From assembly GCA_044869275.1 (NCBI GenBank), contig JBIOXB010000033.1, positions 1 to 50,031 on the forward strand: a stretch of DNA of 50,031 bases, written 5' to 3'. The notes under the pieces were generated by a model that was given only the letters and a program-made list of their open reading frames with translations, had not been told where the DNA came from and did not search any database. This DNA is from a bacterium (lineage in GTDB: Bacteria; Zhuqueibacterota; Zhuqueibacteria; Zhuqueibacterales; Zhuqueibacteraceae). Position 1 is the first letter of the stretch; each line of letters opens with the position of its first letter. The position numbers and the translations under genes were made by a program. Positions 16,198 to 40,457 of the stretch are shown piece by piece.

Positions 16198-16455
16198 CTT
16201 CAGCTTTGCCGCTCAAAGAGCTTCAGTTTTCAGCTCGTTTGAAAATCCGAGGTAGCCATCTCGTGGCCAATTTCAAAAAAAGGCCATAAGCCCCGGCGCT
16301 CCAGCTTAAAAAGATTCCTCCTGATTGGCAACAAAAAAGAACGCCGCATTTCAACTTGACTCCCAGGACGAGGCAATGTAAATTGCGCCGGGTTTTCAAA
16401 GACAATGATCATGCTCGCCCGGAGACAGCGCGAACTTCATCAGGGAGGAGGAGCA

Positions 16456-20328: not shown

Positions 20329-20421
20329 ATTGCTTTTTAGCCCAAAACCTCTAAATTGCAGTCGCCACCTGAGATTTTTGGGTGTTATTTGATTACCGAA
20401 TTCAATGCAAGGGCGACAAAA

Positions 20422-21618
20422 TTGCAAACACGGTTTCGCAAGTTGTTCCGTGCCGGGTTATGGATGCTGTTGTCGTTGATTGTGCTGGAGGGCTGCCAAA
20501 AAAAAACAGCGGCGCGAAGGGGCGGTTTTGTCTCGCAATGGTCGGTCCAGCCCTCTCTGGTTTATGATTCGTGCCATTTGATCGGCATCCTCACAGGCCG
20601 GCCTCTTTATTCGAAATATTATCCGCAAGTGTATCGCGATTGGTCCTGGAATTTGCCGGTGGAGGTGCGCGGCGCGATGACGCAGATCGATTGGTTGATC
20701 GGTCCGAACTGGCCTCCCGGACCTCGCTTGAGCATGCTGCTGGCAAACTTTGCACCTGCGGATAGCCTGGGCGATATCATACGGATGATGCAAGACGACC
20801 AACCTATGCGCACCCGCCTTATGGCTTCCGATTATGGGAATGAAAAGAATTGGCAGCAATGGCAGGCGCTCAAACCCCATGTCACTTCGGTATTGGGATA
20901 TTTGCGTGCGAATCAATTTGAAGGCTATTGGCGTTCCAAATTCCTCCCCGAGCTGCTCGCCCAAATTCCTGCAGCGAAACAGGAGCTGCAAGCTTATGAC
21001 GTGATTGGCGACGTCGAACGGTTTCTCGGCGACTTTCGCGCGGAGCGCGACACGTTAGAAGTATACCTGGTTTCGCTCGGGCAGCCGCACGAGGTGCGTT
21101 TGCACCGGCAGGCGCGCATCGCGAATGCCCGGCAAGAATTGCGCCCGGTGGTGCGCAATTTCTATCGTGAAATGCTGCATCCTTATTGCGACCTCCTGGT
21201 GGATTCCCTGCTGGCGGAGGAATTTGCGCAACTGCCCGGCGACGATTTCATGCAAGCTTGTTTGCAGAAAGTTGCATTTTACGGCGCGCCGCTCGATTTT
21301 AACTCCTTTTGCAAGAAAGAGCTGGTGCTCGCCGCGGAATTATGGCTCGCGGCGCGACGGCAGCTGCTCGTCTCCCCGCAAAATACCGGTATCGATCATT
21401 CTGCCAATGCGATTCGAAGTTATCTGCGCGAGCAAGACCAGGGGGCACACGGCCTAGCCGCCGTGATTTATTCCTATCTCGAAGCGGGTTTGAAGCCGGA
21501 GCGCATTTCGTATGGCGATTTCGTGAAAGATTTGTTTGCCAGCGGTAAGCTGCGCGCCGGGAAAATTGCAGGGCGCTATCACGATTTCTTGAGCGCGCCG
21601 GGACTGGCGCAACAGTAG
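20422..21618 (+). CDS. Hypothetical lipoprotein
   Basis: Basic n-region, hydrophobic h-region and LEGC lipobox. Long ORF. Start among 20356, 20422 and 20464. Confidence 0.75.
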   Translation: MQTRFRKLFRAGLWMLLSLIVLEGCQKKTAARRGGFVSQWSVQPSLVYDSCHLIGILTGRPLYSKYYPQVYRDWSWNLPVEVRGAMTQIDWLIGPNWPPGPRLSMLLANFAPADSLGDIIRMMQDDQPMRTRLMASDYGNEKNWQQWQALKPHVTSVLGYLRANQFEGYWRSKFLPELLAQIPAAKQELQAYDVIGDVERFLGDFRAERDTLEVYLVSLGQPHEVRLHRQARIANARQELRPVVRNFYREMLHPYCDLLVDSLLAEEFAQLPGDDFMQACLQKVAFYGAPLDFNSFCKKELVLAAELWLAARRQLLVSPQNTGIDHSANAIRSYLREQDQGAHGLAAVIYSYLEAGLKPERISYGDFVKDLFASGKLRAGKIAGRYHDFLSAPGLAQQ

Positions 21619-24298: not shown

Positions 24299-24327
24299 TT
24301 GACAAAGTGTAATTCATTTTTTAGATT
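24299..24327 (+). promoter_or_regulatory. Putative sigma70 promoter of the TonB-receptor locus
   Basis: TTGACA-17 nt-TAGATT. Confidence 0.65.
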
Positions 24328-24404: not shown

Positions 24405-26543
24405 ATGAAAGCTCAGCGACTTGCCTTTTTCTATCTGGTTTCGTTCTTTGTTCTCAATCGCGCGCTTGCTCAAACCGAGCGTGATCCCCGCTTGCACAAA
24501 CCTTCCGTTGACGACGACACCAAATTCACCACCGCCGGCAGTATCGGCCTCACGGTTACGAACTTCGGCACCATTGGCGACGGCTTTGCCGTTCAAGCGC
24601 CGCAAGACCGGCCTTCGTGCGAATATCCCAAAGGCTCGGGCATCGAGCACATGTTCGTGGGCGGATTGTGGGTGGGCGGCCGCCGCGATGATGGCACCGT
24701 CTTCGTCACCACGGGAGCGAAAGACGTGCCCTCGCTGACCGACGTCGCCGCCGGTTTCGAATTCACTAATTCCGATGATCCCAATGACCTCGTGCGCGAG
24801 CGCTCCAGTAAAATCGAGAGTCCGTTTTACGACCCCGCGGCCATCAGCCATCAAGATTTCGTCGCCGATTTCACCGATTCCAACCTCGTGGTGCCGGGTA
24901 CCACCATCCGCATTCCGCAGCACAATCCCATCAATCTTTCCGTGCACCTTGAGTCTTATGCCTGGGATTTTCCCTTTGCCGACGCGTTTGTGATTTTGAA
25001 TTACACCATCAAGAACACCGGGCGCCGGCGTTTGAACGACGTGTACGTTTCGCTCTGGGCGGACTTGGTCGTGCGCAACACCAAGATCACGCCGCCGCGC
25101 GTGGGCGCGCCGTTCTATCAACACAAAAGCGACGGCTTCGTCGATTCGCTGCGCATGATGTATTCGTTCGATTTCGACGGGGACCCGGGCTTCACCGAGA
25201 ACGGCCTATATGCCGCCATCAAGCATCTGGGCGCAACGCCGCAAGCCAATGATACCACCTACAGAAATCGCGCCACCTTCAATGCCTGGCTCTTTCGCGA
25301 TGCCAGCGATCCGGTTCTGTTTTCTCCGCAGACCGACATCGAATGCTATCAAAAGCAAAGAGAGCCGCTCGATCCGGTGGCCTACAACTCGCGCGTGAAG
25401 GGGCAAAAGGGCAATTTCATCACCATGATCACCACCGGCCCTTTCAAGGCTATCGCGCCTGATGCCTCGCTCAACGTGGTGTTTGCAGTGGTTTGCGCCA
25501 GCAAGGGCGGCAGCGATCCGAATAGCGCCGACACCGAAGCCAATCGCAGCAATTTGAATACAAACGTATATTGGGCGCAAACCGCCTACGACGGCGAGGA
25601 CCGCAACGCCAATGGCCGGCTCGATCCCGGTGAAGACTTGGATCGTGACGGAGAATTGGATCGCTACATTTTGCCCACACCGCCCACGCCGCCGCGCTTC
25701 AAAGTCTTTCCCGAAGACCGCCGGGTGACTTTGTATTGGGACCGCTCCGCGGAGGAATCGGTCGATTTCATCAGCGGCAGGAAAGATTTCGAAGGCTACC
25801 GCGTGTATCGCACGCAGCTTGGTGAAGACTTGCCGGGCAGGGATTTGTTTTCTTCATTTACTTTGATTGCCGAACACGATTCCGTCGATGGCCTCGGTTA
25901 CGACGCCGGTCTCAACGCCGTGCGCTTGGAGCAGCCTGTCACTTTCGGCGAAACCGCGATCAACCCCGTCACCGGCGCCCATGAGACGATTTATTATCAT
26001 TACAAATTTGTGAATGAGAATTTGCTCAACGGCTGGCAGTATGCGTATGCCGTGACCGCGTTCGATCAGGGTGATCCTGCCATTCGCCTGCAAAGTTTGG
26101 AGAGCAGCCGTTTGAGCAACGCCGTGCGGGTGTTTCCCGGCGCGGCAACCCGTGAGGCGCAGTTGCAAGCTGATGCCTCAAAAGATATTTCTGTGGGTGT
26201 GTATCCCAATCCCTATCGCGTGAACGCCACCTGGGACGGCAATCTCGAGCGCGACCGCAAATTCTACTTTTTCAACCTTCCGGCATCTTGTGAAGTGCGC
26301 ATTTATACGCTTGCGGGCGACCTTGTCGATCAGTTCCAACACGACGCCACAACTTATGCTGGCGAGGGCATACAATGGACGGAAAAATTCGCGCAAGGCA
26401 ATCGTGTGTATGCCGGCGGTGAACATGCATGGGATTTGGTGACGCAAGATGATCAGGCACTTGCTTCAGGACTTTATTTTTACACGGTGGAGGATTTTGC
26501 AAGCGGGCAGGTTCAACGCGGAAGGTTTTTGGTGATTAAATGA
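24405..26543 (+). CDS. Secreted protein with FN3-like region and T9SS/FlgD-like C-terminal domain
   Basis: Signal peptide. EYPKGSG...F.GGLWVG, Dx[DN]xDG-like loops, DFEGYRVYR, YAVTAFD and V.PNPY...RIYTLAGDLV...WD...SG.Y motifs. Confidence 0.85.
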   Translation: MKAQRLAFFYLVSFFVLNRALAQTERDPRLHKPSVDDDTKFTTAGSIGLTVTNFGTIGDGFAVQAPQDRPSCEYPKGSGIEHMFVGGLWVGGRRDDGTVFVTTGAKDVPSLTDVAAGFEFTNSDDPNDLVRERSSKIESPFYDPAAISHQDFVADFTDSNLVVPGTTIRIPQHNPINLSVHLESYAWDFPFADAFVILNYTIKNTGRRRLNDVYVSLWADLVVRNTKITPPRVGAPFYQHKSDGFVDSLRMMYSFDFDGDPGFTENGLYAAIKHLGATPQANDTTYRNRATFNAWLFRDASDPVLFSPQTDIECYQKQREPLDPVAYNSRVKGQKGNFITMITTGPFKAIAPDASLNVVFAVVCASKGGSDPNSADTEANRSNLNTNVYWAQTAYDGEDRNANGRLDPGEDLDRDGELDRYILPTPPTPPRFKVFPEDRRVTLYWDRSAEESVDFISGRKDFEGYRVYRTQLGEDLPGRDLFSSFTLIAEHDSVDGLGYDAGLNAVRLEQPVTFGETAINPVTGAHETIYYHYKFVNENLLNGWQYAYAVTAFDQGDPAIRLQSLESSRLSNAVRVFPGAATREAQLQADASKDISVGVYPNPYRVNATWDGNLERDRKFYFFNLPASCEVRIYTLAGDLVDQFQHDATTYAGEGIQWTEKFAQGNRVYAGGEHAWDLVTQDDQALASGLYFYTVEDFASGQVQRGRFLVIK

Positions 26544-26573
26544 AGCAGGACTTGAAAGGGGGCGCGAATTTGA

Positions 26574-27863
26574 TTAATGCCCGAGCAGCCGATGTACTGG
26601 TACACACCAGATTTTATGAGCTGCATCGAGTTGCTCGAGGCGAGAGCCGCGTGTTATCACAATGCCGCCGCACCATTTTGATTTCAGCACGCCGGCCACG
26701 TCGCGCAGAGCGCGGAAATCTTTGGCCACAATCTCTCGGCTGGATTTTACTTCGAACCCCCACATGCCTCGCGAGGTTTGCAGCAATAAGTCCACTTCCA
26801 AGCCGGAGCGGGTGCGATAAAAATAAAGCTCGACCTGTTGGCCCGTGGTGCGCACCCATTTGTAGATTTCGGCAATGACAAAGGTCTCGAAGAGCGCGCC
26901 CGTGGGAGCGCCGCCGTAGCCCTGCAAATGGCGCATGATACCGATATCGAGCCAGTACAATTTAGGTGTTTTAATGGCAGCGCTGGTGAGGTTTTTGCGA
27001 AATGGCGGCAGTGCAAATGTCTGATACGATAGTTTAAGATATTCAAAATATCTTCTGCTGGTGGAAGGCGAAATGCCGGCATCACGGGCCAGCTCCGAAA
27101 AGGAGAGAATTTGTCCGCTGCGCAAGGCGCTCAAGCGTTGAAAATCACGAAATAGGGCAAGATCTTCGAGGCGCGCGAGATCGCTCAAATCGCGCTCCAA
27201 ATAGGTGTGACTGTAAGATTGCAGCCATTGTTGGCGATCGGGCTCGCTGAGAGAGAGCAATGCAGGCATGCCGCCCCACTTCAGCATATAATCCACGGCC
27301 GCCAAAATAGCCTCTTCCTCAGCCGGAAGGTGCTGGGGAGCTAAACTCGACAGAAGCGAGTTGACTTCGGAATCGGCAATGAGTTGCGCCAACAGCAATG
27401 ACGAAGGCGGGCGATTTTCATAAGCTATTTCAGAGAGCATCAAGGGAAATAGTTCATAAAAAAACGCGCGGCCGGCCAGCGTTTCGCGAATGCGTTTGAG
27501 CATTAGAATTTGCGAAGAGCCTAATAACACGGAGAAGTCGAGGCTGCCCTCATCAAAGCTGTATTTTACTTTCTCAAAAACGGTCGGCTCTTTTTGCGCT
27601 TCGTCCAGTATCGCGGCCCCGAATTCTTTTGCCCATGACATGCTACGCACGGCTCGCACAAAATCACGGTTTTCTGGTGCATCAAGATTGACATAGCGTA
27701 ATTCGGGATAAACTGTTCGTGCCAAAGTCGTCTTTCCCGTTTGCCGTGCACCGGTTATGACGACCAAGCGGCGCGAGTCAGATTTTGGCAGACGCCCATG
27801 GAGTTGGCGAAATTTCTGTAAATTTGATTTTAGCATGATTGAATTTACAGGCAAATCCGTCAT
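26574..27863 (-). CDS. AAA_14/DUF4143-type ATP-binding protein
   Basis: GARQTGKTT, LDEAQ, LGSS, ETLAGR, YLERD, K.Y..D.G and YR...G.EVD...EVK motifs. Start 27863 or 27836. Confidence 0.9.
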   Translation of the reverse strand: MTDLPVNSIMLKSNLQKFRQLHGRLPKSDSRRLVVITGARQTGKTTLARTVYPELRYVNLDAPENRDFVRAVRSMSWAKEFGAAILDEAQKEPTVFEKVKYSFDEGSLDFSVLLGSSQILMLKRIRETLAGRAFFYELFPLMLSEIAYENRPPSSLLLAQLIADSEVNSLLSSLAPQHLPAEEEAILAAVDYMLKWGGMPALLSLSEPDRQQWLQSYSHTYLERDLSDLARLEDLALFRDFQRLSALRSGQILSFSELARDAGISPSTSRRYFEYLKLSYQTFALPPFRKNLTSAAIKTPKLYWLDIGIMRHLQGYGGAPTGALFETFVIAEIYKWVRTTGQQVELYFYRTRSGLEVDLLLQTSRGMWGFEVKSSREIVAKDFRALRDVAGVLKSKWCGGIVITRGSRLEQLDAAHKIWCVPVHRLLGH

Positions 27864-27922
27864 GATGCAAGGTTTTTTCTCAGAAATCAACCCATTAACA
27901 TTAACGTGTAAGGGAGATCCTC

Positions 27923-30709
27923 ATGAAAAACTCGTTACGCCTCGTGTTGTTTCTTTTGACAATGACAATCCTAATCGCGCCACCATGGGCGCAGGCGCAA
28001 GATCACCTGCTCATCACGGAATTTGTGGTCACGCCCACCGCCGGTGAATTCGTCGAAATTCATAATCCCACGGCGAATTCCCTGGATTTGAGCAACTATT
28101 ACCTAACCGACGAAGTTTTTAACAACAATAACAACTACATCAATGTCGTCAAAGGTAACTTCACCGCGTTTACTTCGGATTTCATGGTGAAATTTCCGAA
28201 CGGCGCGAGTATAGCTCCGAAACAATTCGTCACGATTGCGGTCTCCGGCGCGGGCTTCACGGTCACCTATGGCAAACCGGCTGACTTCGAAATCAAAGGC
28301 GATGATGCCAACACGCCGGACATGGCCGCCGTTTCCGTGGGCGCGACCGTGGGATTGACGAACGGAAGCGAGATTGTCATTCTCTTTCACTGGGATGGGC
28401 AGAACGATCTCGTGCAGGATGTTGACATCGTGCAATGGGGCGATAAGACCACGGCAGTCAACAAGACCGGCGTAAGCATCGACGGCATGGACGCGGATGC
28501 CAACCCTTCCACTTACCTCGCTGATACTCCCGTCGCCAATCAGTTCGTGGTGAATGCAGAGAATGATGCAGACACCGATCCACACGACGCCGGCAATTCC
28601 GCACAGCGCAAGCTTGACGTTGAAGATCTCGAAACCTGGACCGGTGGAAATGGCCTCACCGGCCACGATGAAACCAGCGAAAACTTCTCGTGGAAAGGCG
28701 GCATCTGGAGCATCAATGCCCCGGCCACGCCCGGCTGGCGCGCTTTGGGCGACAGCTTGAACATTGCCGACATTCAATTCGTGCGTGCCGGTGAAATCAA
28801 TGCGACGAGCAACGATGATACCAAATTCCTGGGCGACACTTTGACGGTTTCCGGAATTATGATGCAAGGCCCGCGCGATATCTTTTTGGGAGCGCGCTGG
28901 GGCGGTTTTATTCAAGACGAAAGAGGCGGCCCATGGAGCGGATTTTTCATCATCCAAAATGATAGCACCGTTTCCGGCACCTTGCTCAGCGCGACCCGGC
29001 CCGGCGATAAAATCAAAATCACCGGTGTCGTGCAGGAGTTCCCCACCCCGCTGACGGCGCAAAGCATTACCCAATTCGCACTTTTCACGAACCCGGTGAC
29101 GCCGGTCGAGTTTTTGGATTTCGATCTACCCTTGCCGGAACCCGTGCTGCTCACCCCCGGCGATTTGGGTGCGAGCGGGACCACCACTAATACCGCATTG
29201 GCGGAGCGCTGGGAGAGCACGCTGGCGCGCTTTGAAAATCTGACGGTGACGGGCAACGGTTTGCCCGGCAATATCATGAGCGCCGCCGATGCCACCGGAA
29301 GCATCAACCTCGATGACTATTTCAATGCCGTCTTTAATGTGGTGAGTGCCAACGGCGGCGTGTGGCCGGGATTTCCTGCCGGCACCAAAATCAACGTCAC
29401 CGGATTCATCCGTGGCGGCACCACGCAAGGGACGACGACCATTAATCCCCGCAGCCTGGCCGATATCGAAGTGGCCGCGGCGCCGCCGGACATAACCAAT
29501 ATCATCCGCAACCCGGTTGCGGTTACCTCCACAAATGAGGTGGAGATCAGCGCGAACATTGTGGACGCGCAAGGCCCGGTAACGCGCGCGCACGTGGATT
29601 TTATCGTGGACAATAGCCCAGTGCAGAGAGTGGCCATGACCACTGCGGACAATGTTGCCTTTCGCGGCGTGATACCGCGGCAGACCAACGGCGCTTTTGT
29701 GCAATACTATGTCATTGCCGTGGACGCCACGGGCGACAGCACCGAGGCCGGCGCTGCGACGAGGTATTTTTATTATGTGCGCGATAACGGCTTGACGATA
29801 TTCGACGTGCAATACACGCCCTTTGCTAACGGCAATTCCGGCTATACCGGCCTCGCGGTAACAGTCGAGGGAATTGCCACCACGGATTCCGCCGATTTTG
29901 GGTATTACTACATTCAGAACGGGCGCGAGCCCTGGAACGGCGTTTGGGTCAACGACACGCAAACCAACGTCAAGCTGGGCGATCGCGTGCGCGTCACGGG
30001 CACGGTGCAGGAGAATTTCAACGTGACGCGCATTGGCAATGTTGCGAATGCCGTAATCCTCGGTTCCGGCAACCCCGTGCCCGAACCGGTGGTCGTGAAA
30101 ACCGGCGATCTGCGCGCGGGCACGACAGCGGAACAATATGAGGGCATGTTGGTGCGCGTGTTGGGCGCGAAAGTCAGCAACCCCTTCCCCGATGGCGCGA
30201 GCAATTTCGGCGAGTTTTCGATCAACGACGGCACCGGCGAAGTGCGTGTGGATGATGAGAGCGGCGGCTATATCGGCAATTTGGATTCTTCCTTTGTCTT
30301 GGGTGATAGTCTGGTTTCGATCACCGGGATTCATTATTTCAGCTTCACCAACTACAAAATGTTGCCGCGCAACAACAACGACGTCATCCGCTTCTCCGTG
30401 AGCGTGGAGGAAAATCCCGCCGGCATGCCGCACACGTACGCGCTGGAACAAAATTATCCCAACCCGTTCAATCCCGAAACCACGATTCGCTACCGGCTCG
30501 CGCAAAAAGGCCAGGTGACCATCAACATCTTTAACGTGCTCGGGCAAAAAGTGATAACGCTGGTGGACGAAAACAAGCCCGCGGGCGCGTACAGAATCGT
30601 TTGGAACGGCCGCGATGAGCGCGGTGTTGCCGTGCCTACCGGCATGTATTTTTATCGCATGAAAAGCGGCGAGTTCACGCACGTACGCAAGCTTTTGTTG
30701 CTGAAATAA
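27923..30709 (+). CDS. Secreted lamin-tail and OB-fold repeat protein with T9SS type A/FlgD-Ig C-terminus
   Basis: Signal peptide. LLITE...EFVEI.NP..DLSNY.L.D. Two YIQ...PW.G / GD.V.VTG.V.E / E..EG.LV blocks. QNYPNPFNP...KLLLLK. Confidence 0.88.
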   Translation: MKNSLRLVLFLLTMTILIAPPWAQAQDHLLITEFVVTPTAGEFVEIHNPTANSLDLSNYYLTDEVFNNNNNYINVVKGNFTAFTSDFMVKFPNGASIAPKQFVTIAVSGAGFTVTYGKPADFEIKGDDANTPDMAAVSVGATVGLTNGSEIVILFHWDGQNDLVQDVDIVQWGDKTTAVNKTGVSIDGMDADANPSTYLADTPVANQFVVNAENDADTDPHDAGNSAQRKLDVEDLETWTGGNGLTGHDETSENFSWKGGIWSINAPATPGWRALGDSLNIADIQFVRAGEINATSNDDTKFLGDTLTVSGIMMQGPRDIFLGARWGGFIQDERGGPWSGFFIIQNDSTVSGTLLSATRPGDKIKITGVVQEFPTPLTAQSITQFALFTNPVTPVEFLDFDLPLPEPVLLTPGDLGASGTTTNTALAERWESTLARFENLTVTGNGLPGNIMSAADATGSINLDDYFNAVFNVVSANGGVWPGFPAGTKINVTGFIRGGTTQGTTTINPRSLADIEVAAAPPDITNIIRNPVAVTSTNEVEISANIVDAQGPVTRAHVDFIVDNSPVQRVAMTTADNVAFRGVIPRQTNGAFVQYYVIAVDATGDSTEAGAATRYFYYVRDNGLTIFDVQYTPFANGNSGYTGLAVTVEGIATTDSADFGYYYIQNGREPWNGVWVNDTQTNVKLGDRVRVTGTVQENFNVTRIGNVANAVILGSGNPVPEPVVVKTGDLRAGTTAEQYEGMLVRVLGAKVSNPFPDGASNFGEFSINDGTGEVRVDDESGGYIGNLDSSFVLGDSLVSITGIHYFSFTNYKMLPRNNNDVIRFSVSVEENPAGMPHTYALEQNYPNPFNPETTIRYRLAQKGQVTINIFNVLGQKVITLVDENKPAGAYRIVWNGRDERGVAVPTGMYFYRMKSGEFTHVRKLLLLK

Positions 30710-30782
30710 CTCTTGCAACCCTGACTAGTCGCGCCACGCAACCGGTCAGTTGATTTCTTATCTTGAGCTGGCATTTTGAAAG

Positions 30783-30906
30783 AATCAGTCTGTGTGAAAA
30801 CGCTTTGTTTCGACGCCGGCTGAGCTTGTCGAAGTCGGGTTCTTGAGCCTGGCACCCTTCGACAAGCTCAGGGTGCGGCATTCTCAAGTTTTCACACAGT
30901 CTGATT
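30783..30906. mobile_element. MITE/REP-like element, copy 1
   Basis: 19-bp terminal IR (aatcagtctgtgtgaaaac) with 1 mismatch. Internal IR ctgagcttgtcgaag/cttcgacaagctcag. A second copy lies at 37075. Confidence 0.75.
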
Positions 30907-30935
30907 ATTGCTGAATGACGGTTGGTCAATTGTCT

Positions 30936-32333
30936 ATGACTTTTTCGATCAATAAAAACTCTCTCATTGGGCTGGCAAGTGCTCTGATCGTCCTGGCGAG
31001 CTGCTCAGATCACCTCACCGACAGCCCCAATGCCAACCAGCCGCCGGTGACGCACCTCGCGCTGCGCAGCGTCGCGCCCGATTCTTTGAATCCCACGACC
31101 AGCAAGCAGACGCTGCACTGGTGGGGCGACGATCCCGACGGCCGTGTGGTGGGCTTCATCTACACATTCAATTCCAATGCCGGCAATTTGTCGAGCTGGA
31201 CGGACAATGCCACTGATGCAAATTGGACTTTCACGCCGAATACACAGGAGACCTTCACCCTGCGGCTGGCGGGCACGGATACAAATTATACCTTCTGGGT
31301 CAAAGCGGTGGATGATCAAGACGCGGCAGATCCAACTGGCGCGCGACAAACCTACCCGATCGTGAATTCGAGTCCGGTGGTGGAATTTCCCCTGGGCACG
31401 GATGTGCCGGACACGACCTTCACCGTGGCCAATTTCAGTTGGAGCGCGAGCGATCTCGACGGCGATGACACCATCGCCAGATTTGAATACGTACTCGACG
31501 ATTCCAATGCCGCAAGCTGGCGGCAAATCCCCGCCGGCGTCACCTCCATCACACTGGGCGTGCTCGAAGGATTGGTCGAGGGCCGGCACGTCTTTTATCT
31601 GCGTGCCGTGGACATCGCGGGCGCGCACAGCAGGATCATCAGCATGCCGCGCGATCCGCAGGGAACGTGGTACGTGCGCGTGCCGCGCAGCACGTTCCTG
31701 GTCGTCGACGATTACAACGTCGCCGATAACAGCGCGAATTTTTATCACGCGATTCTGCGCGATCTTGTGGGTGTATTTGACGTGTGGGATATCAAGCGCG
31801 ACAACCGCGCGCTGGTGCCGGCCTCCTCCGAGGCTTTTGCGCGAACGCTGCAATTGTTCGATCTCATCTTTTGGTACACCGACACCGAGCCGAACTTGGA
31901 AAAAGCGCAAGTCAGTGTTCCCCAATTTCTGGATCGCGGCGGCAAAATTCTCATGGTTGCTTCTTTTCAGGAGTTCGCCAGCAATCAAGGGGACCCGCTG
32001 GATTTCTCGCCGGTGGACAGCCTGGGCGGCCGCATTGCGCGCATCACGCGCAATCAGAATATCGATCCGGCGCCCGCGTTTGCCAGCACCGGCTTTCCGC
32101 CGTTGCGCGTGAATGCGTCGATCATTCCGAATGTTTTCCCACTCGTGCCCAAAATCAGCGCAGACACCATGTATGTACTTCCGCCGAACCCGGCTTTGTG
32201 GCCGGGAACACCGGTCATAGGAGTGGTCGACGGCACCTCGACATTCGTGTTCTTCGGAATCCCACTCGCCTCGGCGGACGGCTTGGGCACGGTGCGCGCG
32301 CTGTTCGAAAAGATTTTGAATGACATTTTTTGA
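30936..32333 (+). CDS. Lipoprotein with two FN3/Ig-like domains (TonB receptor-associated)
   Basis: LASC lipobox. W.G.DPDG.V.GF and W.ASD.DG repeats. Alpha/beta C-terminal domain. Confidence 0.85.
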   Translation: MTFSINKNSLIGLASALIVLASCSDHLTDSPNANQPPVTHLALRSVAPDSLNPTTSKQTLHWWGDDPDGRVVGFIYTFNSNAGNLSSWTDNATDANWTFTPNTQETFTLRLAGTDTNYTFWVKAVDDQDAADPTGARQTYPIVNSSPVVEFPLGTDVPDTTFTVANFSWSASDLDGDDTIARFEYVLDDSNAASWRQIPAGVTSITLGVLEGLVEGRHVFYLRAVDIAGAHSRIISMPRDPQGTWYVRVPRSTFLVVDDYNVADNSANFYHAILRDLVGVFDVWDIKRDNRALVPASSEAFARTLQLFDLIFWYTDTEPNLEKAQVSVPQFLDRGGKILMVASFQEFASNQGDPLDFSPVDSLGGRIARITRNQNIDPAPAFASTGFPPLRVNASIIPNVFPLVPKISADTMYVLPPNPALWPGTPVIGVVDGTSTFVFFGIPLASADGLGTVRALFEKILNDIF

Positions 32334-32422
32334 CGAAAGCTGCGGATAGAAGATCTTTTGGTTGCGGCTACGCCGCGTTGTTGAACTCTGTGCCATTGCA
32401 TTGAAAAGCTTCTGGACGAGTT

Positions 32423-35320
32423 ATGATGGGAACGGCGAAAATTGCATCCTGCCTTTTGCTAATATTGTTACCGCTCCGCACGGCGGTGGGACAAACCAAA
32501 GGCACGATCAAGGGCAGCATCACCGACGCCGAAACGCGAGCGTCTTTGCCGGGCGTGAATGTGCTGATCAAGGGCACATACTACGGCGCGGCGGCGGACG
32601 CGAACGGCAATTACACGATCGCGAACGTCAATCCCGGGACCTACACGCTCGAAGTGTCGATGATCGGTTACAAGCAGATTCAACAAACCGGTGTGAAAAT
32701 CGCCGCCGGCACCACGACCACCTTGGATTTTAAGCTGGAAGCCACCGTATTGTCATTGGGGCAGGAGGTGGTGGTCATCGGCGAGAAGCCGCTGTTTGAT
32801 ATCGAAGAGACCTCGAGCCGGCGCAATTTGTCGGGTTCCGATATTCAAAAAGAAGTGGTGGAAAACGTGCAGGACGTCGTGGCGAATCAAGTTGGCGTGG
32901 TGAAAAGCGATGACGAAGTGCACATTCGCGGCGGCCGTTCTTATGAAAATGCCTATTTGCTCGACGGCATTTCCGTACAAGATCCTCTTTCCGGCACGGG
33001 TTTCGGCCTGCAGTTGAGCACGGACGCGGTGGAGGAAATCGAAGTCATCACCGGCGGTTTCAACGCCGAATACGGCCAGGCCATGTCCGGCGTGATCAAT
33101 GTCAGGACCAAGGAAGGCGGGGAAACGTACAAAGGCAGCCTGGGTTACAAACGCGATCATTTCAACCTCATCGATGCTGGCGTGCCGGTTCTGGGTGAGT
33201 TCAGCCCACAAAATAGCCACAGTTTCAATACCGATATTTTTGAATTCAGCTTGAGCGGGCCTGAGCCATTTTCCCGCTTCATCTTTCCTGCTTTGGGTCT
33301 GCGTTTGCCCGGCGAATTCGGCTTGTTTGGGAATTTTTATTCTGCCGTGAGCGACACTTATTTGAAGAATTCTGCGCGGCAATTGTATTCTTCGATCTCC
33401 CCGCGCAGCATTTTGGGCCTGGGATCTTTCGATGGCGACACGTTTGCGCCGCGGCAGGACAATAACTGGTCGGGCTTGATCAAAGTCACCTGGCGCATGG
33501 ATGCCACGCACAAACTGATGCTATCCGCGAATCAATCCATGTCCATCAACCAGAACACGCAATCGCTGCAAACCAATTTGGAATTTGTCGAGCCGGGCCC
33601 CGGCTACCCTTACGAGTATGAGAAGAACCTCGACAATTTCAACACCTTCACGCATCTCAATCGCCAGCTTGCACTCTCGTGGGTGCACACGCTGAATCCC
33701 AAAACGTTTTATGAGGTCAAGCTCGCGCGCTATTTCGCGCACCTGCGCAGCGATGTGAACGGCAAGGATTGGACTGAATATCAAGAGCCGCAGGACATCG
33801 TCACGCAGCCGATCGATTATTTCTACAATCGCGACAGCAGTATTGTCTCGGTTTTCCCCGGCGACGGTTTTTGGGATTACGGCGACGGCGACACCTGGCA
33901 CGATCATTACGTCGAAGAATACACGCTGAAATTCGATCTCAATCGCAACAGCGGCAACAACGCGCACAAACTCAAGGCCGGCCTCGACGCCAGCTTCGCC
34001 GAGTTTCAAATGATCGACATCTACCGCCCGTGGTTTGGCGGGTTGGGGTTGAACAACGACATCTACCGCGTCAATCCCGCCTATGGCAGTTTTTATGCGC
34101 AGGATCAAATCAAATTCAAAGGCTTGATCGCCAGCCTCGGTTTGCGCTTCGACTATTGGTTCCCCGGAGAATACGTTGAAGACGCGGTGGCCAATCCGGA
34201 AATCGTAACCATCAGCGACGAAACGCGCGAGCAGTTTTATGCGGACACGTACAACTTTTTCGGCCATCGCTGGCGCGGGCGTTTGAGTCCGCGTATCGGC
34301 ATCTCGCATCCGATATCCGACAACCAAATGCTGTTTCTGTCTTACGGGCATTTTTCCAAGCGGCCCAAACCGCAATTCATTTACGCCAAGCTCGGCGAGA
34401 ACAGCGCCAAATCGACGTTCCAAAAATTCGGAAATCCCAATTTGGACTATGAAACCACGGTGGCGTACGAGCTCGGCCTGCGCCACAAGTTTTCGGACAA
34501 TGATGTGTTGACGGTGACGGCATATTACAAAGACATTTTTGATTACGTCACCACCGTGAGTTTCAGCGGCACCGGCCGGCTTTCGGGGAGAACTTTTACC
34601 ACTTATCTGAATCTCGATTATTCGCGCTCGCGCGGCATTGAAGTGGAATTTCGCAAACGTGCCAGCGCACTGTTGTCGGGTTCGATCAGCGGCTTTTATT
34701 CACTGGCCACAGGCAAGAGCTCGTCGCCGGACGATGCCTATCTCGTGGCGCAGGGGACGTTGAATGAAAAGCCGATCACGGAAGACAATTTGATTTGGGA
34801 TCGCCCCTGGCAAGTGAGCGCCGTGATGAATTTGAATGCCCGCAGGGACTATAAGCCGAGAGTGTTCGGCCTGGCGCTGCCGAGCGATTGGAATTTGAAC
34901 GCGCGCCTGTTTGCGCAGGCGGGCAAGCGCTATACGCCGTACTATTTCACCGACAATTATTTGCCCAACGGCCGGCCCGAATATGTGGACGATCTCGATC
35001 AAAACGGCGAAGCCGATGATCCCTTGGGCAAGCTCGCCAGGTCGTGGTTTTGGATCAACCTGAATTTTGAAAAATATTTCCGCCTGGCGCAGACGGATTT
35101 GACCTTCTCCCTGGAAGTGATCAATTTGCTGGATCGCAACAATCCACAAGTGATTAATCCGGTCACCGGACGCGCGTATGAATTGGGCGACTCCACCCCC
35201 ACAAGCTGGAACGACCCGTATTATCCCGATACGCAAGCGCCGCTGGATCCGTTTCCTTTCAATCCCGCGCGCTATTTGACGCCGAGGAACATGAGGGTAG
35301 GTTTGGCATTACGCTTTTGA
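32423..35320 (+). CDS. TonB-dependent receptor
   Basis: Carboxypeptidase-regulatory-like N-domain, plug motifs (HIRGGR, GGFNAEYG.A.SGV.N), SPR.G, GNP.L..E and a C-terminal Phe. Confidence 0.95.
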   Translation: MMGTAKIASCLLLILLPLRTAVGQTKGTIKGSITDAETRASLPGVNVLIKGTYYGAAADANGNYTIANVNPGTYTLEVSMIGYKQIQQTGVKIAAGTTTTLDFKLEATVLSLGQEVVVIGEKPLFDIEETSSRRNLSGSDIQKEVVENVQDVVANQVGVVKSDDEVHIRGGRSYENAYLLDGISVQDPLSGTGFGLQLSTDAVEEIEVITGGFNAEYGQAMSGVINVRTKEGGETYKGSLGYKRDHFNLIDAGVPVLGEFSPQNSHSFNTDIFEFSLSGPEPFSRFIFPALGLRLPGEFGLFGNFYSAVSDTYLKNSARQLYSSISPRSILGLGSFDGDTFAPRQDNNWSGLIKVTWRMDATHKLMLSANQSMSINQNTQSLQTNLEFVEPGPGYPYEYEKNLDNFNTFTHLNRQLALSWVHTLNPKTFYEVKLARYFAHLRSDVNGKDWTEYQEPQDIVTQPIDYFYNRDSSIVSVFPGDGFWDYGDGDTWHDHYVEEYTLKFDLNRNSGNNAHKLKAGLDASFAEFQMIDIYRPWFGGLGLNNDIYRVNPAYGSFYAQDQIKFKGLIASLGLRFDYWFPGEYVEDAVANPEIVTISDETREQFYADTYNFFGHRWRGRLSPRIGISHPISDNQMLFLSYGHFSKRPKPQFIYAKLGENSAKSTFQKFGNPNLDYETTVAYELGLRHKFSDNDVLTVTAYYKDIFDYVTTVSFSGTGRLSGRTFTTYLNLDYSRSRGIEVEFRKRASALLSGSISGFYSLATGKSSSPDDAYLVAQGTLNEKPITEDNLIWDRPWQVSAVMNLNARRDYKPRVFGLALPSDWNLNARLFAQAGKRYTPYYFTDNYLPNGRPEYVDDLDQNGEADDPLGKLARSWFWINLNFEKYFRLAQTDLTFSLEVINLLDRNNPQVINPVTGRAYELGDSTPTSWNDPYYPDTQAPLDPFPFNPARYLTPRNMRVGLALRF

Positions 35321-35334
35321 TTGCGTTTTCTGAT

Positions 35335-35363
35335 TTTGTCATTCCTGCGAAAGCAGGAATCCA
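35335..35363 (+). repeat. GTC-tagged palindrome (REP-like), left of GIY-YIG gene
   Basis: tttgtcattcctgcgaaagcaggaatcca. Confidence 0.85.
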
Positions 35364-35380
35364 AAACTGTGGGGGGATGC

Positions 35381-35668
35381 ATGGACAAAAATTATTACGT
35401 CTATATCCTGGCAAGCCAGAAGAACGGCACCCTTTATATTGGTGTGACGAGTGATCTGCGAAGAAGAGTTTATGAGCACAAAAACGATCTGATTCCTGGC
35501 TTCACCCAAGAGTACCAAGTTCACAAGTTGATTTATTTTGAAATACACAGCGATGTAAATCAAGCGATCTTGCGCGAGAAACGGCTGAAAAAATGGAAGA
35601 GGCAATGGAAAATTGAATTGATAGAAAAGAGTAATCCAGAGTGGAAGGATTTGTATGAAAACTTGTAG
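35381..35668 (+). CDS. GIY-YIG nuclease family protein
   Basis: YYVYILAS..NGTLYIGVT.DL..R..EH and AI.REK.LK.W.R.WK..LIE..NP.W.DL motifs. Confidence 0.93.
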   Translation: MDKNYYVYILASQKNGTLYIGVTSDLRRRVYEHKNDLIPGFTQEYQVHKLIYFEIHSDVNQAILREKRLKKWKRQWKIELIEKSNPEWKDLYENL

Positions 35669-35781
35669 AAGCATATTCACGAAAACCTGGTCTAAAAACC
35701 CTGGATATTCACTTTTGTGGGAATGGCATCAATGAAGTGTTTTCTCGGCGCGATCCTAATTTTGTTGCTTGCAGTAGAGCC

Positions 35782-35810
35782 TGGATTCCCGCTTTCGCGG
35801 GAATGACAAA
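35782..35810 (-). repeat. GTC-tagged palindrome (REP-like), right of GIY-YIG gene, inverted
   Basis: tggattcccgctttcgcgggaatgacaaa is the reverse complement of the left copy with 2 changes. A degenerate copy lies at about 35700-35729. Confidence 0.85.
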
Positions 35811-35863
35811 GAGATGCAGGCCTCCATCAAATATTAGTGTTGAGCAAAAAGAACAAAACGAGA

Positions 35864-36856
35864 ATGAAACCCAATTCCATCGGGATTGCAGTCGTCGCTG
35901 CGATTCTTTACTCGACTCAACCAGCCCACGCTCAGCTCATTCCCGTGCTCGGCAGCCAGCGCGCGGGCACGGCCATGGCGCAATTTCTCAAGATCGGCGT
36001 GGGTGGCAGAGCCGTGGGCATGGGCGAAGCGTTTGCCGCCGTGGCGAACGACGCCTCGGCGCTGTACTGGAATCCGGCAGGCATTGCCCAAACCACGCAA
36101 AATGAAGTCGTATTTTCGCACGTGAATTGGCCGGTGGAGGTGCGCCACGAATTTGTCGGTTATGTGCATCATTTTGGCAGAGCCAATGTGTTCGGCGTAA
36201 GTGTGACAGCTTTGCACACCGAGGACATGGAAGAAACGACTGAATTCGCGCCGCTGGGCACCGGCAACTATGTTACGTTTGGCGATCTTGCGGTGGGATT
36301 GACTTTCGCGCGGCAGATGACCGATCGCTTCAGTTTTGGTGTGACCGCGAAGTACATGGACGAAACGCTGGCGGAAGTGCACGCGCGCGCCATCATGGTT
36401 GATCTCGGCACGTATTACTGGACCGGTTTCGGCAAGAGCCGCTTTGCCGTAGCCGTTTCCAATTTCAGCACCAGAAATATCGAACCCAAAGGCACCATCA
36501 CCACGCGCGACGGGACGGCGCAGAACAGCTTTCAAGATTTTGCGCCGCCCACGGTTTTCCGCATCGGCTTCGCCACGGAAGTGTTGGAGAACGAGCAGCA
36601 CCGAATGACCACTGCCGTGCAGCTCAATCACCCCAACGATAACGCGGAGAACGTCAACCTGGGCGTCGAGTATTGCTGGAACAAAGCGCTGGCGTTGCGT
36701 TCCGGCTATCGCTTGAATTACGATGAAGAATCCTTCACCTTCGGCGGCGGCGTGGCTTTGCCCATGGGAGGTATTCATTTGAATCTCGATTTTTCTTATT
36801 CCGATTTTGGACGTCTGGGAAATGCCACGAGATTCTCAGCGAATTTAAAGCTGTAA
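35864..36856 (+). CDS. PorV/PorQ family outer-membrane beta-barrel
   Basis: GT..AQFLKIGVG.RA.GMG.AF.A...DASA.YWNPAG. Amphipathic beta strands. Confidence 0.9.
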   Translation: MKPNSIGIAVVAAILYSTQPAHAQLIPVLGSQRAGTAMAQFLKIGVGGRAVGMGEAFAAVANDASALYWNPAGIAQTTQNEVVFSHVNWPVEVRHEFVGYVHHFGRANVFGVSVTALHTEDMEETTEFAPLGTGNYVTFGDLAVGLTFARQMTDRFSFGVTAKYMDETLAEVHARAIMVDLGTYYWTGFGKSRFAVAVSNFSTRNIEPKGTITTRDGTAQNSFQDFAPPTVFRIGFATEVLENEQHRMTTAVQLNHPNDNAENVNLGVEYCWNKALALRSGYRLNYDEESFTFGGGVALPMGGIHLNLDFSYSDFGRLGNATRFSANLKL

Positions 36857-36945
36857 GCGAAGTTGAGGTTTTTATCACGCTGGCAGCTTTTTTTGCGGCG
36901 AGGGAGCGGTGCCGAGGCGTAAGTGCGTCAACCTGAGTGAACACT

Positions 36946-36994
36946 CTCGTTCCACCGCTCAGCGGTGGAATGCATGCGATGACGCTCTGCGTCC
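36946..36994. repeat. REP-like double hairpin
   Basis: ctcg-ttccaccgct-c-agcggtggaa-tgcatgcgat-gacgc-tct-gcgtc. Confidence 0.65.
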
Positions 36995-37074
36995 GGAAAA
37001 GTTATGCTTCAATACGTATCGCGAATACAAATGTGATCGGAAGAGAGCGCGCGCTCAGACAATCAGGTTCAGCA

Positions 37075-37182
37075 TGTGTGAAAACGCTTGGTTTCAACGC
37101 AGACTGAGCTCGTCGAAGCCTGATTCTTGAACTCAGCACCCTTCGACAAGCTCAGGGTGCGGCCTTCCCAAGTTTTCACACA
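37075..37182. mobile_element. MITE/REP-like element, copy 2
   Basis: tgtgtgaaaac...gttttcacaca ends. Shares gcacccttcgacaagctcagggtgcggc with copy 1. Confidence 0.75.
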
Positions 37183-37253
37183 ATCTGGTTCTTCCTGAAG
37201 GACAAGAGTCGCAAGCGCGCAGGAATGCCACGAATGCTCATCTTGAACGCAGC

Positions 37254-38303
37254 ATGAAAACTAAATTTGCCTTTTGCCTTTTGCTCTTTTCTTTTTTCTA
37301 CATCGCCTGCGGCGGCGAGAAGGTGCCGTTGCCACTGCAGCCGGATAACCCCGGCGGCACCACCGCGGCAAGCGATACGACCTATCTGCAATTGCAGCCG
37401 GTTTGGGGGCCGGCGACCGGCTACGGCTTCAATCAGCCCAAAGATATTCTGCTGGGCCGCGAGCCGCTGATTTACGTGGCCGACACGGAAAATGACCGCC
37501 TGGTCATGCTCGATTTGGCCGGTAACATTTTGGGCGAATCGCAACACATTGCCAACCCGGTTGCGCTCACGCAAGATTCCAAACTCAATTTGTTGATCGT
37601 CACGGATACCAACAAAATTTATCGTATCAACCTCGTCGCGGTGCGGCACCAGATCGCAGGCGCGCCGGTGGAATTGGTTTTTGAAGAAATTGACAATCCC
37701 GATCGCCGTTATACCGGCATTGCCGCGGTGCTGGTTTCTGTGCAAGGATTTTCAGTCATCAATTACTTGGTGACGGCAACGGGCAACGACACGAGGGACA
37801 ATCAGGTTTTGGTTTTTCCCGAGACTTTCGACGTACGCGTTCCCAATGCGCTGAGTCTGGAGCCGAACGGTTTGGGGATTTTATCCGCAGCGCAGCCGAG
37901 CGGCATCACCTCTTTGCGAGATTTTTCGGTGGATTTTATTTTCTGCATGACGGGAGAGAATTCTTTTAAGGTTCAATGGATTACCACCAGCCAATTCGGC
38001 ATCGTTCCACGCCTAAATCCCGCACAGGGAAATTTCGATATTTTCGCGCCGGGTAAATTCTCCATGCCCGAAGACGTGACCGTCGATCCTGAGGGTAATA
38101 TCTACGTCGTCGATGCCGACTCCGATTCTCTGCTTAAATTCTCGGCGGCCGGAGACGAGTTGCAATCCTTCGGCGGTCCAGGCGCAGGCGAAAAACAATT
38201 TCACCAACCGCAAGGAGTGGCGTTTTTTGACAAAACACTGTACCTCGCCGATACGGGCAACGATCGCATCGTGCGGTTTAAATTATCCACTGATATCGAT
38301 TGA
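37254..38303 (+). CDS. NHL-repeat (beta-propeller) lipoprotein
   Basis: YIAC lipobox. F.QP.D...IYVADT.N.R, PEDVTVD.EGNIYV.D and F.QPQGVA...LYLADTGN.RI motifs. Confidence 0.88.
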   Translation: MKTKFAFCLLLFSFFYIACGGEKVPLPLQPDNPGGTTAASDTTYLQLQPVWGPATGYGFNQPKDILLGREPLIYVADTENDRLVMLDLAGNILGESQHIANPVALTQDSKLNLLIVTDTNKIYRINLVAVRHQIAGAPVELVFEEIDNPDRRYTGIAAVLVSVQGFSVINYLVTATGNDTRDNQVLVFPETFDVRVPNALSLEPNGLGILSAAQPSGITSLRDFSVDFIFCMTGENSFKVQWITTSQFGIVPRLNPAQGNFDIFAPGKFSMPEDVTVDPEGNIYVVDADSDSLLKFSAAGDELQSFGGPGAGEKQFHQPQGVAFFDKTLYLADTGNDRIVRFKLSTDID

Positions 38304-38366
38304 GGACGCGGTATTTCTATGAGAGTGAGAGGGATAAAGGTGATTCGCTTTTCGCGTGATCAAGTT

Positions 38367-40457
38367 ATGAAAAAAGTTGTCTGCATTTTGCGAGTATTCC
38401 ATGTGCTGGCGTTATGCTATTTTCTTTTGCATGCCGCCATTTTGCCGGCGCAGAACTATCAAGCTTTTTTTGGGGACATGCATTCGCATTCCAGTCTCTC
38501 TTGGGATGCCAAATCCGGCTCAAAGATGCCGGCGCAAGCGTATGCCTATGCCAAGCATGTCGCCAGAGTGGATTTTCTTGCGATCAGCGATCATACCAAC
38601 GGCCTGCCACAGGCGAATTATCAAATCATCCGCGCCGCGGCCGCGGCCTATGATCATCCGGACAGCGCGTTTGTTGCGATTGCCGGACAAGAGCTGGGCA
38701 GTTTGGGCGGCACCGGTTATGGGCATATGAACATTTTCGAAGCGTTGACGATTGCGGGCAACGGCCTTGATAATGACGATATTCGCTACGATTTACGCAT
38801 GGCCTACCAATTCGTAATCGACAACAACGTCACAGCGCAATTCAACCATCCTTCCACGGAAAACGGCAACAGCAATTTTCTAAGCTTCGATTATTATCCG
38901 CCGGCGGCGCCGCACATGTCCAGCCTGGAAGTCATCAACGGCACACGCTCCACGAACTATGAACGCTATTACTTGCTGGCTTTGCAAAAGGGCTGGCATG
39001 TCAGCGCGCTGGGCGACCAGGATAATCACGGCCCGAATTATGGCGATCTGCGCGCAAGCGACGGCGATATTTATCTCACGGGCGTGCTGGCCGATGCCCT
39101 CAGCAAACCGAAAATTCTGGCAGCGATTCGTGAGCGCCGCACGTATGCTATCGAAGCCAATCCCGCGAACGACCGCATGCATCTCGATACGTTCACGGCG
39201 GACGGCCGCTGGATGGGCGAAACCTTTGCCGACGCGGATGCGCAGGCAGTGCTGGAGCTCGCGGCGCATTCGGCGGCGGGAACCAGCAGCAGATTTCGCC
39301 AGGCGCAAATGTACTGCAACGGTTTTCTTATAGCCTGGAGAGACTTGAATGCCCCCAGCTTCACGTGGTCGGTGATCGACTCCCATTCCACTGGGGCGCA
39401 TTACTATTTTGCGAAACTGGTGCAGGAAGACGGCGATTTTTTGTGGACGAGCCCGATTTGGGTCGATAGCCCGGGCCTGCCCATGACGGAGCCTGCACTT
39501 GTTTCCATTCAAAGCCTGCGCCAGAATTTTTCCGATGGTGTCTCGCAAGCTCTCGGTTGGATCAACGTAAGAGTGCGCGGGGTGGCAACCGCAGGAACAC
39601 ATTTCGGCGAAGCAGGCCCGGGCTATTTGCAGGATTCAACCGGCGGCATCGGCGTTTTCGGCGCAGATTTCACCAAGGCCGTCGTCACCGTCATCGGACC
39701 GGGTCCAGCGTTTGAAATGGAAGTCACGGGCGCAGTGTCGCAATTCAACGGCTCGTTGGAGATTTTGCCTTATGCCGTGCGGCGCGTGGACACGAAACCG
39801 CCGGTCGCGCCGGTGTTGACGACCACCGCCGCAATTGCCGCCCAAGGTGAGGCCTGGGAGGGCGCATTGGTGAAAGTGATCAAGGCGCGTATTCTCGCGG
39901 GAAGTTTTCCGGTCGCGGGCGCCAGCGCGAATCTGACCATCGACGACGGCAGCGGACCATGCACGCTGCGCATCGATGGCGACACGGATATTGCCGGACA
40001 GCCTACGCCGGCAAACTCCCTCGACATCGTCGGCATCGTTAATCAATTCGATTCTTCCCCGCCCTACCGCGAGGGCTATCAACTGATGCCGCGCCGCCGG
40101 TCGGATATTGCCCTCGTCACCAGCGTGGAATTTGAAGGCACCGTTGCCGCGCTCCGCGATTTTCGCTTGTCACAAAATCATCCCAATCCCTTCACGGCCT
40201 CTGCTGGCAGCGTGTTTGCGTTCACTTTGCCGGTCGAGGCGGAAATACGCTTCGAGATTTTCAATCTGCTCGGCGAGCGGGTTACTCTGCTGGCATCGGG
40301 AAGATTTGCACGCGGAGAGCACCGCCTCTCATGGGACGGCCGTGACACCATCGGACAGCGGGTGAGTGCAGGTATGTATTTTTACAGATTGCAGGCCGGC
40401 GAAGGCGCTGAACGTGCTGCGTGGTCGGAGGTTAAGAAGCTGGTGGTTTTGCCGTGA
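38367..40457 (+). CDS. PHP-domain (CehA/McbA-like) metallo-phosphoesterase with OB folds and T9SS/FlgD-Ig C-terminus
   Basis: GDMHSHS..S.D, ISDH, FNHP and DQDNH motifs. YLQD.TGG and IDDGSG...RID OB-like block. QNHPNPF...WDGRD...GMYFY.L. Confidence 0.85.
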   Translation: MKKVVCILRVFHVLALCYFLLHAAILPAQNYQAFFGDMHSHSSLSWDAKSGSKMPAQAYAYAKHVARVDFLAISDHTNGLPQANYQIIRAAAAAYDHPDSAFVAIAGQELGSLGGTGYGHMNIFEALTIAGNGLDNDDIRYDLRMAYQFVIDNNVTAQFNHPSTENGNSNFLSFDYYPPAAPHMSSLEVINGTRSTNYERYYLLALQKGWHVSALGDQDNHGPNYGDLRASDGDIYLTGVLADALSKPKILAAIRERRTYAIEANPANDRMHLDTFTADGRWMGETFADADAQAVLELAAHSAAGTSSRFRQAQMYCNGFLIAWRDLNAPSFTWSVIDSHSTGAHYYFAKLVQEDGDFLWTSPIWVDSPGLPMTEPALVSIQSLRQNFSDGVSQALGWINVRVRGVATAGTHFGEAGPGYLQDSTGGIGVFGADFTKAVVTVIGPGPAFEMEVTGAVSQFNGSLEILPYAVRRVDTKPPVAPVLTTTAAIAAQGEAWEGALVKVIKARILAGSFPVAGASANLTIDDGSGPCTLRIDGDTDIAGQPTPANSLDIVGIVNQFDSSPPYREGYQLMPRRRSDIALVTSVEFEGTVAALRDFRLSQNHPNPFTASAGSVFAFTLPVEAEIRFEIFNLLGERVTLLASGRFARGEHRLSWDGRDTIGQRVSAGMYFYRLQAGEGAERAAWSEVKKLVVLP

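Follow-up and report, generated by a model that had tools for sequence, protein, structure and literature searches.

Which substrate does an outer-membrane uptake locus serve when neither SusD nor any glycoside hydrolase family matches its proteins? The question is posed by a 50,031-nucleotide stretch of DNA (the window; contig JBIOXB010000033.1 of assembly GCA_044869275.1), from a bacterium of the Zhuqueibacteraceae whose genome assembly is 6.67 Mb in size and 94% complete. A first-pass annotation described seven co-oriented envelope genes at positions 24405–40457 as a module resembling a polysaccharide utilization locus (PUL) that captures, cuts and imports nucleic acid. The seven plus-strand open reading frames (ORFs) exist, with two further genes lying inside the run, and zero matches to SusD or a glycoside hydrolase family are found on any of the seven proteins. 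Six of them, g1–g6, form a real, widely conserved and apparently undescribed uptake system. We regard the proposed architecture of this six-gene cassette as very probable, and consider, with moderate confidence, that it captures DNA or RNA fragments and imports them across the outer membrane. No description of the cassette was found in the literature searched, most subscription papers lying outside that search.

Two sets of loci were retrieved: 40 that surround g6 homologues within the phylum and 76 that surround receptor homologues from all of GTDB (the best 80 of 588 confirmed). With two duplicates removed, 72 loci extend far enough to either side of the receptor, and in 62 of these 72 all six core genes lie on one strand. 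The conserved order is g1, a protein with the C-terminal domain (CTD) of type IX secretion system (T9SS) cargo; g2, an OB-fold CTD protein; g3, a lipoprotein; g4, the TonB-dependent receptor; g5, a barrel; and g6, an NHL lipoprotein. Around the receptor, g1 is present in 70 long loci, g2 in 67, g3 in 69, g5 in 71 and g6 in 70, and several of the missing genes look like split ORFs or ORF-calling artefacts. The order is kept across KSB1-, Calditrichota- and Ignavibacteria-labelled genomes, where the first-pass annotation had suggested looking for it; Kryptonia- and Fermentibacteria-labelled genomes are also among the carriers. Because loci were picked by similarity to g6 or g4, these counts express linkage, not prevalence. 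Of 167 genomes of the phylum, 87 have a g1 orthologue (60 of the 105 near-complete ones), as do 61 of 151 genomes of the class of G167, in both sets as a single copy per genome bar one split case. A quick tree groups 25 receptors of the cassette in a single clade, apart from eight paralogues of this genome (SH-aLRT 100). In two genera of the same family (G149–G157; L032, L033, L036, L038 and L040), g1 and g6 lie apart or on different contigs, and at L036 neither a barrel nor a receptor gene lies in the 11 kb around g6; in these genera the cassette may have come apart.

The first gene product, g1 (24405..26543, plus strand), has no Pfam hit. Its structural model (predicted local distance difference test score (pLDDT) 77) comprises a signal peptide, a β-supersandwich at residues 35–423 without a catalytic barrel, an FN3-like domain and a PorZ-like CTD; the earlier description of an FN3/CTD protein covered the last two modules and not the supersandwich. 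The supersandwich resembles the non-catalytic N-domain of GH15, GH94 and GH116 enzymes (Z 17–18; for a GH15-type N-domain, Z 18.2, root mean square deviation (r.m.s.d.) 3.4, 252 residues aligned), and the CTD aligns with that of PorZ (Z 11.1, r.m.s.d. 2.7, 89 aligned, 33% identity). The barrel g5 (35864..36856, or from 35837, plus strand) belongs to the PorV/PorQ family (NF033709, 204.8 bits against a cut-off of 90) and lies below the equivalog cut-offs for PorV and PorQ (NF033710 and NF033711; 73.9 against 250 and 80.8 against 220, respectively). Prediction of a complex between g5 and residues 425–712 of g1 scores 0.91, against 0.00 for the best control, a mark reached by 116 of 157 solved pairs and 2 of 215 mismatched pairs, although the score may reflect likeness to solved PorV–CTD structures, which tells against our reading. 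The runs agree to at least 94%, partner pLDDT is at least 82, and the contacts are almost all on the CTD. Gene order points the same way: with CTD class profiles built from orthologues in other genomes, a PorV-family gene comes next after 9 of the 10 g1-type CTD genes that have room downstream, against 6 of 182 generic CTD genes. The exception among the ten is g1 itself, whose barrel lies 9.3 kb downstream, and two of the six barrel-preceding generic genes are members of the triads described below. The idea that a locus-specific PorV paralogue holds the CTD proteins near the receptor therefore survives for g1, by complex prediction and CTD class, whereas g2 and g7 carry a generic type-A CTD. 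That the barrel holds g1, g2 and g7 alike was considered and set aside, since CTD class does not support it; the complex prediction covered the CTD of g1.

This architecture is not special to the locus. A BLAST search of the genome returns 23 PorV-like and 12 g1-like hits, and besides the cassette there are eight complete receptor–CTD protein–barrel triads and five cut by contig ends, so that the triad recurs about 14 times in the genome. CAZymes (carbohydrate-active enzymes) lie beside four of the 13 paralogous triads, and a phosphoesterase beside none of the 13 (flanks were fetched, some of them short). The supersandwich is common to g1 and the paralogous triad proteins and is thus not substrate-specific. 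SprA and PorU are present in the genome outside the cassette locus, SusD_RagB has one hit, on another contig, and PorV-family genes number 7–23 per genome. On the Rhodothermus marinus plasmid pRMAR01 (L180), a receptor–hypothetical protein–PorV/PorQ triad is followed by genes for a peptidoglycan-recognition protein and a serine hydrolase; this triad, from a species that is in culture, may serve peptidoglycan uptake, and its enzymes suggest that the neighbours of triads track the substrate.

The second CTD protein, g2 (27923..30709, plus strand), may link the cassette to nucleic acid. Its model consists of a lamin-tail domain (LTD), an OB pair, an immunoglobulin-like (Ig) domain, a second OB pair and a CTD, in agreement with the original domain calls, which were likewise upheld for g4, g5, g6 and g7. 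The blocks described as OB-like do model as OB folds: residues 277–401, 404–521 and 720–826 match solved OB folds with Z scores of 10.2, 9.9 and 9.1–9.3, and OB3 (about 625–720) has no match on its own. In Foldseek, rank 8 is p204 HINab bound to double-stranded DNA (dsDNA), the family to which PMC12478041 likens DdbD; the whole-chain search is dominated by Ig repeats. Neither domain searches nor the model reveal a catalytic domain in g2. Residues 672–768 match the N-terminal part of ExeM/NucH weakly (NF033681, 45.8 against 300 bits, model positions 34–129 of 546), and the EEP catalytic domain of that family is not found among the LTD, OB, Ig and CTD modules. We also tried the LTD as a sign of a nuclease and rejected it: it occurs on 9 of 32 g2 proteins, as an accessory and not as the system part it had been taken for, and shows 59% identity with the LTD that a CHRD-repeat protein of this genome carries.

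Of the remaining core proteins, the lipoprotein g3 (30915..32333, plus strand) has a LASC lipobox and an fn3-like N-terminal part; its nearest Atlas clusters are unnamed (0.98) and the nearest named one is DUF4960 (0.90), a lead only. The receptor g4 (32423..35320, plus strand) carries Plug and an N-terminal CarboxypepD_reg domain and is not a SusC, matching TIGR04056 with 67.6 bits against a cut-off of 368.25 and in the N-terminal part only. An NHL β-propeller domain is matched on the lipoprotein g6 (37254..38303, plus strand).

A nucleic-acid substrate is also suggested by the exchangeable enzymes beside the cassette. Here this position is taken by g7 (38367..40457, or from 38319, plus strand), a PHP-family metallohydrolase with a DUF5689-like OB pair and a generic CTD. 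By the definitions of the PHP motifs that we take to apply, it has DMHSHS37, SDH74, QELG108, GHMN119, NHP160, LEV187 and DQDNH217, and the metal ligands (DxHxH, DH, E, H, HP, E, DNH) are invariant in eight of eight sequences. Pfam PHP has no hit on g7, a search of solved structures with the PHP domain gives 0 hits, and an orthologue has CehA/McbA as its nearest named family, below the cut-off. DUF5689 scores 24.1 bits on g7, below its cut-off of 28.6, reaches 53.2 bits on a PLD neighbour of the cassette elsewhere, and is found on 5 of 32 g2 proteins at E ≤ 0.01; g2, g7 and the PLD neighbour, which bear it, are CTD proteins and not products of the receptor-adjacent gene. The PHP enzyme, proposed as part of the system, is an accessory that follows 7 of the 84 loci with at least 3 kb beyond g6. 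At 45 of these 84, a secreted CTD phosphoesterase lies within 4 kb of g6 (PLD at 24, EEP at 13, PHP at 7, EEP plus PLD at 1), as detected with profiles built from these neighbours. The PLD neighbours have two HKD motifs in 25 of 27 cases, share an OB pair 33% identical to that of g7, and are nearest to Zucchini, Nuc and NucT, the nuclease branch; two EEP neighbours match the MnuA nuclease weakly, and a search of solved structures with an EEP neighbour gave one irrelevant match. Among 69 relatives of the g7 OB pair, PLD (four) is the only catalytic Pfam family listed, with no glycoside hydrolase or peptidase. Most of the enzymes at orthologous loci are phosphoesterases, not peptidases or CAZymes; of the outcomes that the first-pass annotation named as refuting its idea, neither this one nor a failure of the OB-like blocks to model as OB folds came about. 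At one Fermentibacteria locus the cassette is followed by carbamate-kinase-like, phosphoribosyltransferase (hpt-like) and thymidine kinase (tdk) genes. By contrast, rpiA, which had been thought to fit ribose use, lies upstream only in the same-genus genome and is thus coincidental. In that genome (G158), the PHP gene is no longer intact but divided between two ORFs (L031:16959-18558). Two further CTD proteins with related modules occur in the genome: one of 1773 aa (G000:C184:7233-12551; L173) with an LTD, eight CHRD domains and two DUF5689-like OB pairs, and one (G000:C130:57897-61604; L183) with choice-of-anchor-I, DUF5689 and phytase-like domains, encoded beside a Nudix gene.

Riboswitches provide a further pointer. 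Five of the purine clan are found in 4 of 151 phylum genomes, and three of them lie 190–410 nt before g1 (G050, G058 and G059), at loci that all have an EEP gene as well. All three aptamers show the J3/1 U-N insertion, U22 and C78, features of the 2'-deoxyguanosine-II (2'-dG-II) class; the insertion defines that class (PMC6847200). The other two of the five, also 2'-dG-II-like (G059:C30:192211-192316, L072 and L184; G064:C53:7453-7558, L073 and L185), precede genes for Oar-like TonB receptors. The receptors of L072 and L073 are 72% identical, and the genes for acetaldehyde dehydrogenase and PduL that lie nearby would be in keeping with the breakdown of deoxyribose. In G057, an 89% identical Oar-like receptor lies divergently beside the cassette, and related ones flank seven other cassette loci.

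Together, these data support an uptake module that resembles a PUL, does without SusD and has a PorV-family barrel specific to the locus; we propose the following mechanism for it. The barrel g5 is predicted by the complex model to grip the CTD of g1 and so hold g1 at the surface, where g1, given its constant linkage, may serve as a lid for the receptor in the stead of SusD. Arriving by the general T9SS route, g2 would bind nucleic acid with its four OB folds. Cutting or dephosphorylating it would fall to a secreted enzyme that varies between loci, here g7 and elsewhere PLD/Nuc-like or EEP, and the TonB receptor g4 would import oligonucleotides or nucleotides for salvage, with g3 and g6 as probable accessory lipoproteins of the complex. 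Of 'captures, cuts and imports', the probable substrate stands, whereas 'cuts' depends on exchangeable neighbours because the core has no recognisable nuclease.

Several observations weigh against a nucleic-acid substrate. The OB domains of g2 carry a net negative charge (−3 to −7) and conserve hardly any Lys or Arg, unlike typical dsDNA binders, and L146, L150 and L151 truly lack g2, giving a five-gene form. The OB pair also occurs in this genome on the CHRD-repeat and phytase-like CTD proteins. (The g3 proteins of these three loci contain an inserted YCF48/BNR propeller and are 885–897 aa long.) No such enzyme is nearby at 39 of the 84 loci, including the same-genus locus with the split PHP gene. 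Peptidases lie in or beside three loci (M4 in L105 and L126, S8 in L081) and a GH18 gene precedes L092. The aptamers score 50.3, 53.5 and 57.8, below the 2dG-II cut-off of 60 and all above the RF00167 cut-off of 37, and position 51 is C in two and U in that of G050. Purine-clan riboswitches are absent from the window, from its own genome and from the 151 genomes of the class of G167. Finally, the PLD cases are almost all Ignavibacteria-labelled and the riboswitch loci come from one family (f6), so that the enzyme and riboswitch links represent few independent events.

Some of the contrary evidence favours particular alternatives. General scavenging of organophosphates, DNA being just one cargo beside phospholipid head groups, teichoic acid or phytate, would account for the OB pair recurring on the phytase-like CTD protein and for the CehA/McbA affinity of g7, and the PLD, EEP and PHP families do include lipid and small-molecule phosphoesterases. 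The closeness of the PLD neighbours to the nuclease branch, and the deoxyguanosine-type riboswitch and hpt/tdk neighbours, which point to nucleosides, make it unlikely, if the best of the alternatives. Somewhat less likely is glycan uptake, in which the g1 supersandwich, the Ig and OB domains of g2, and g3 would bind polysaccharide. It draws on the CAZyme N-domain fold of g1, on CBM_56 hits to 15 of 32 g2 proteins, both of which count against nucleic acid, on the CAZymes at four paralogous triads and on DUF4960, which we take to be linked to PULs. The shared supersandwich is no guide to substrate, however, and among 167 neighbour proteins scanned (94 + 73) there are one secreted glycoside hydrolase (the GH18 at L092) and one GH2–GT2 fusion (L146), and sugar ABC or LacI genes do not recur.

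There are two further explanations. DNA might be taken up for natural transformation and not for nutrition, as with the Riemerella DdbCD homologues; PMC12478041 ties a SusD-less receptor and a DUF5689 protein to transformation, and the cassette is single-copy, strongly conserved and often without a nuclease. ComEC is in the genome, which says little because it is also found in 10 of 14 control genomes; no competence genes recur among the scanned neighbours, and predicted secreted nucleases beside about half of the loci together with riboswitch control fit salvage, so we judge this improbable. Marginally more improbable again is a machine that maintains the envelope or assists the T9SS and brings in no nutrient. 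The PorZ-like CTD of g1, the PorV/PorQ family membership of g5 and the high conservation across phyla would suit it, but at the threshold applied g1 goes undetected in 45 of the 105 near-complete genomes of the phylum, the enzymes of paralogous triads are matched to a substrate, and SprA and PorU lie elsewhere. Import of DNA or RNA fragments thus remains the reading that we prefer. More tentatively, non-Bacteroidia lineages of the Fibrobacteres–Chlorobi–Bacteroidetes (FCB) superphylum may have swapped SusC/SusD for a two-barrel complex of receptor, T9SS lid and private barrel, with the cassette clade as a gate for extracellular DNA used in feeding and possibly transformation. If so, this would be a second polymer-uptake architecture in the superphylum, would explain the abundance of PorV-family genes, and would let the cassette serve as an indicator that members of KSB1, Ignavibacteria and Calditrichota use extracellular DNA.

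The locus itself has been invaded. An AAA_14/DUF4143 ATPase gene (26574..27890, minus strand), antisense to the cassette and outside it, is inserted between g1 and g2, and a 95-aa GIY-YIG gene (35381..35668, plus strand) lies within an inserted element (35335..35810) bounded by 29-nt inverted repeats. Neither gene is found in the 40 orthologous loci around g6 homologues, and about 110 nt of the 3' end of the ATPase gene persist in the same-genus genome G158. An interspersed palindromic repeat is also present (30785..30919, no strand; second copy at 37069..37203), with 57 and 78 short BLAST hits in the genome. Two families of such repeats, with tens of genomic copies, occur in the window, and one pair brackets the GIY-YIG gene. 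The predicted sigma-70-like promoter TTGACA-17-TAGATT is present upstream of g1 (24299..24327, plus strand, 10/12 match), but alone does not exceed chance, with 18 sites of this type against 11.9 ± 4.2 in shuffles; TTGAC-N16-18-TAnnnT precedes 21 of 73 g1 orthologues (one a duplicate locus; counted without a shuffle control). Rfam models, riboswitches included, give three weak, chance-level matches in the window. Further upstream on the plus strand are genes for a 1065-aa protein with Big_5, CARDB and a type B (CHU_C) CTD (16405–19602) and for a probable lipoprotein of 420 aa with no Pfam or NCBIfam match (20356–21618).

By analogy, the cassette may work like the ddb locus (ddbABCDEF) of Bacteroides thetaiotaomicron with different parts. 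As far as the accessible text of PMC12478041 describes it, ddb shares a SusD-less TonB receptor, a PUL-like layout and probably DUF5689-type tandem OB proteins, and its secreted nucleases vary between subtypes and can be absent; those of the cassette are predicted from sequence. In ddb, however, the partner proposed for the receptor is the OB protein DdbD, and the surface enzymes are lipoproteins, whereas in the cassette both the OB protein and the enzymes bear the CTD of T9SS cargo. The cassette also adds an NHL lipoprotein and a CTD protein of supersandwich fold paired with a PorV-family barrel of its own, a pair that ddb lacks in that text. ExeM/NucH and YhcR share the lamin-tail and OB accessory domains, but g2 has no catalytic domain and the enzyme is a separate, exchangeable gene. 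Compared with SusC/SusD PULs, each locus likewise combines a receptor, surface binding proteins and hydrolases, and many paralogous loci differ in their enzymes; the differences are a receptor far under the SusC cut-off and the absence of SusD at the cassette locus. The closest parallel for the private barrel is within the T9SS, where FadL-family barrels hold uncleaved CTD proteins in a cargo-specific manner: in the attachment complex, PorQ anchors PorZ, which keeps its CTD, alongside the PorV:PorU pair (PMC5562754), and PorP-like barrels such as SprF anchor cognate type B cargo (PMC9143113). The g5 barrel is predicted to hold g1 as PorQ holds PorZ and SprF holds SprB, yet g5 falls under the equivalog cut-offs, g1 is not PorZ beyond its CTD, and the pair is tied to a nutrient receptor.

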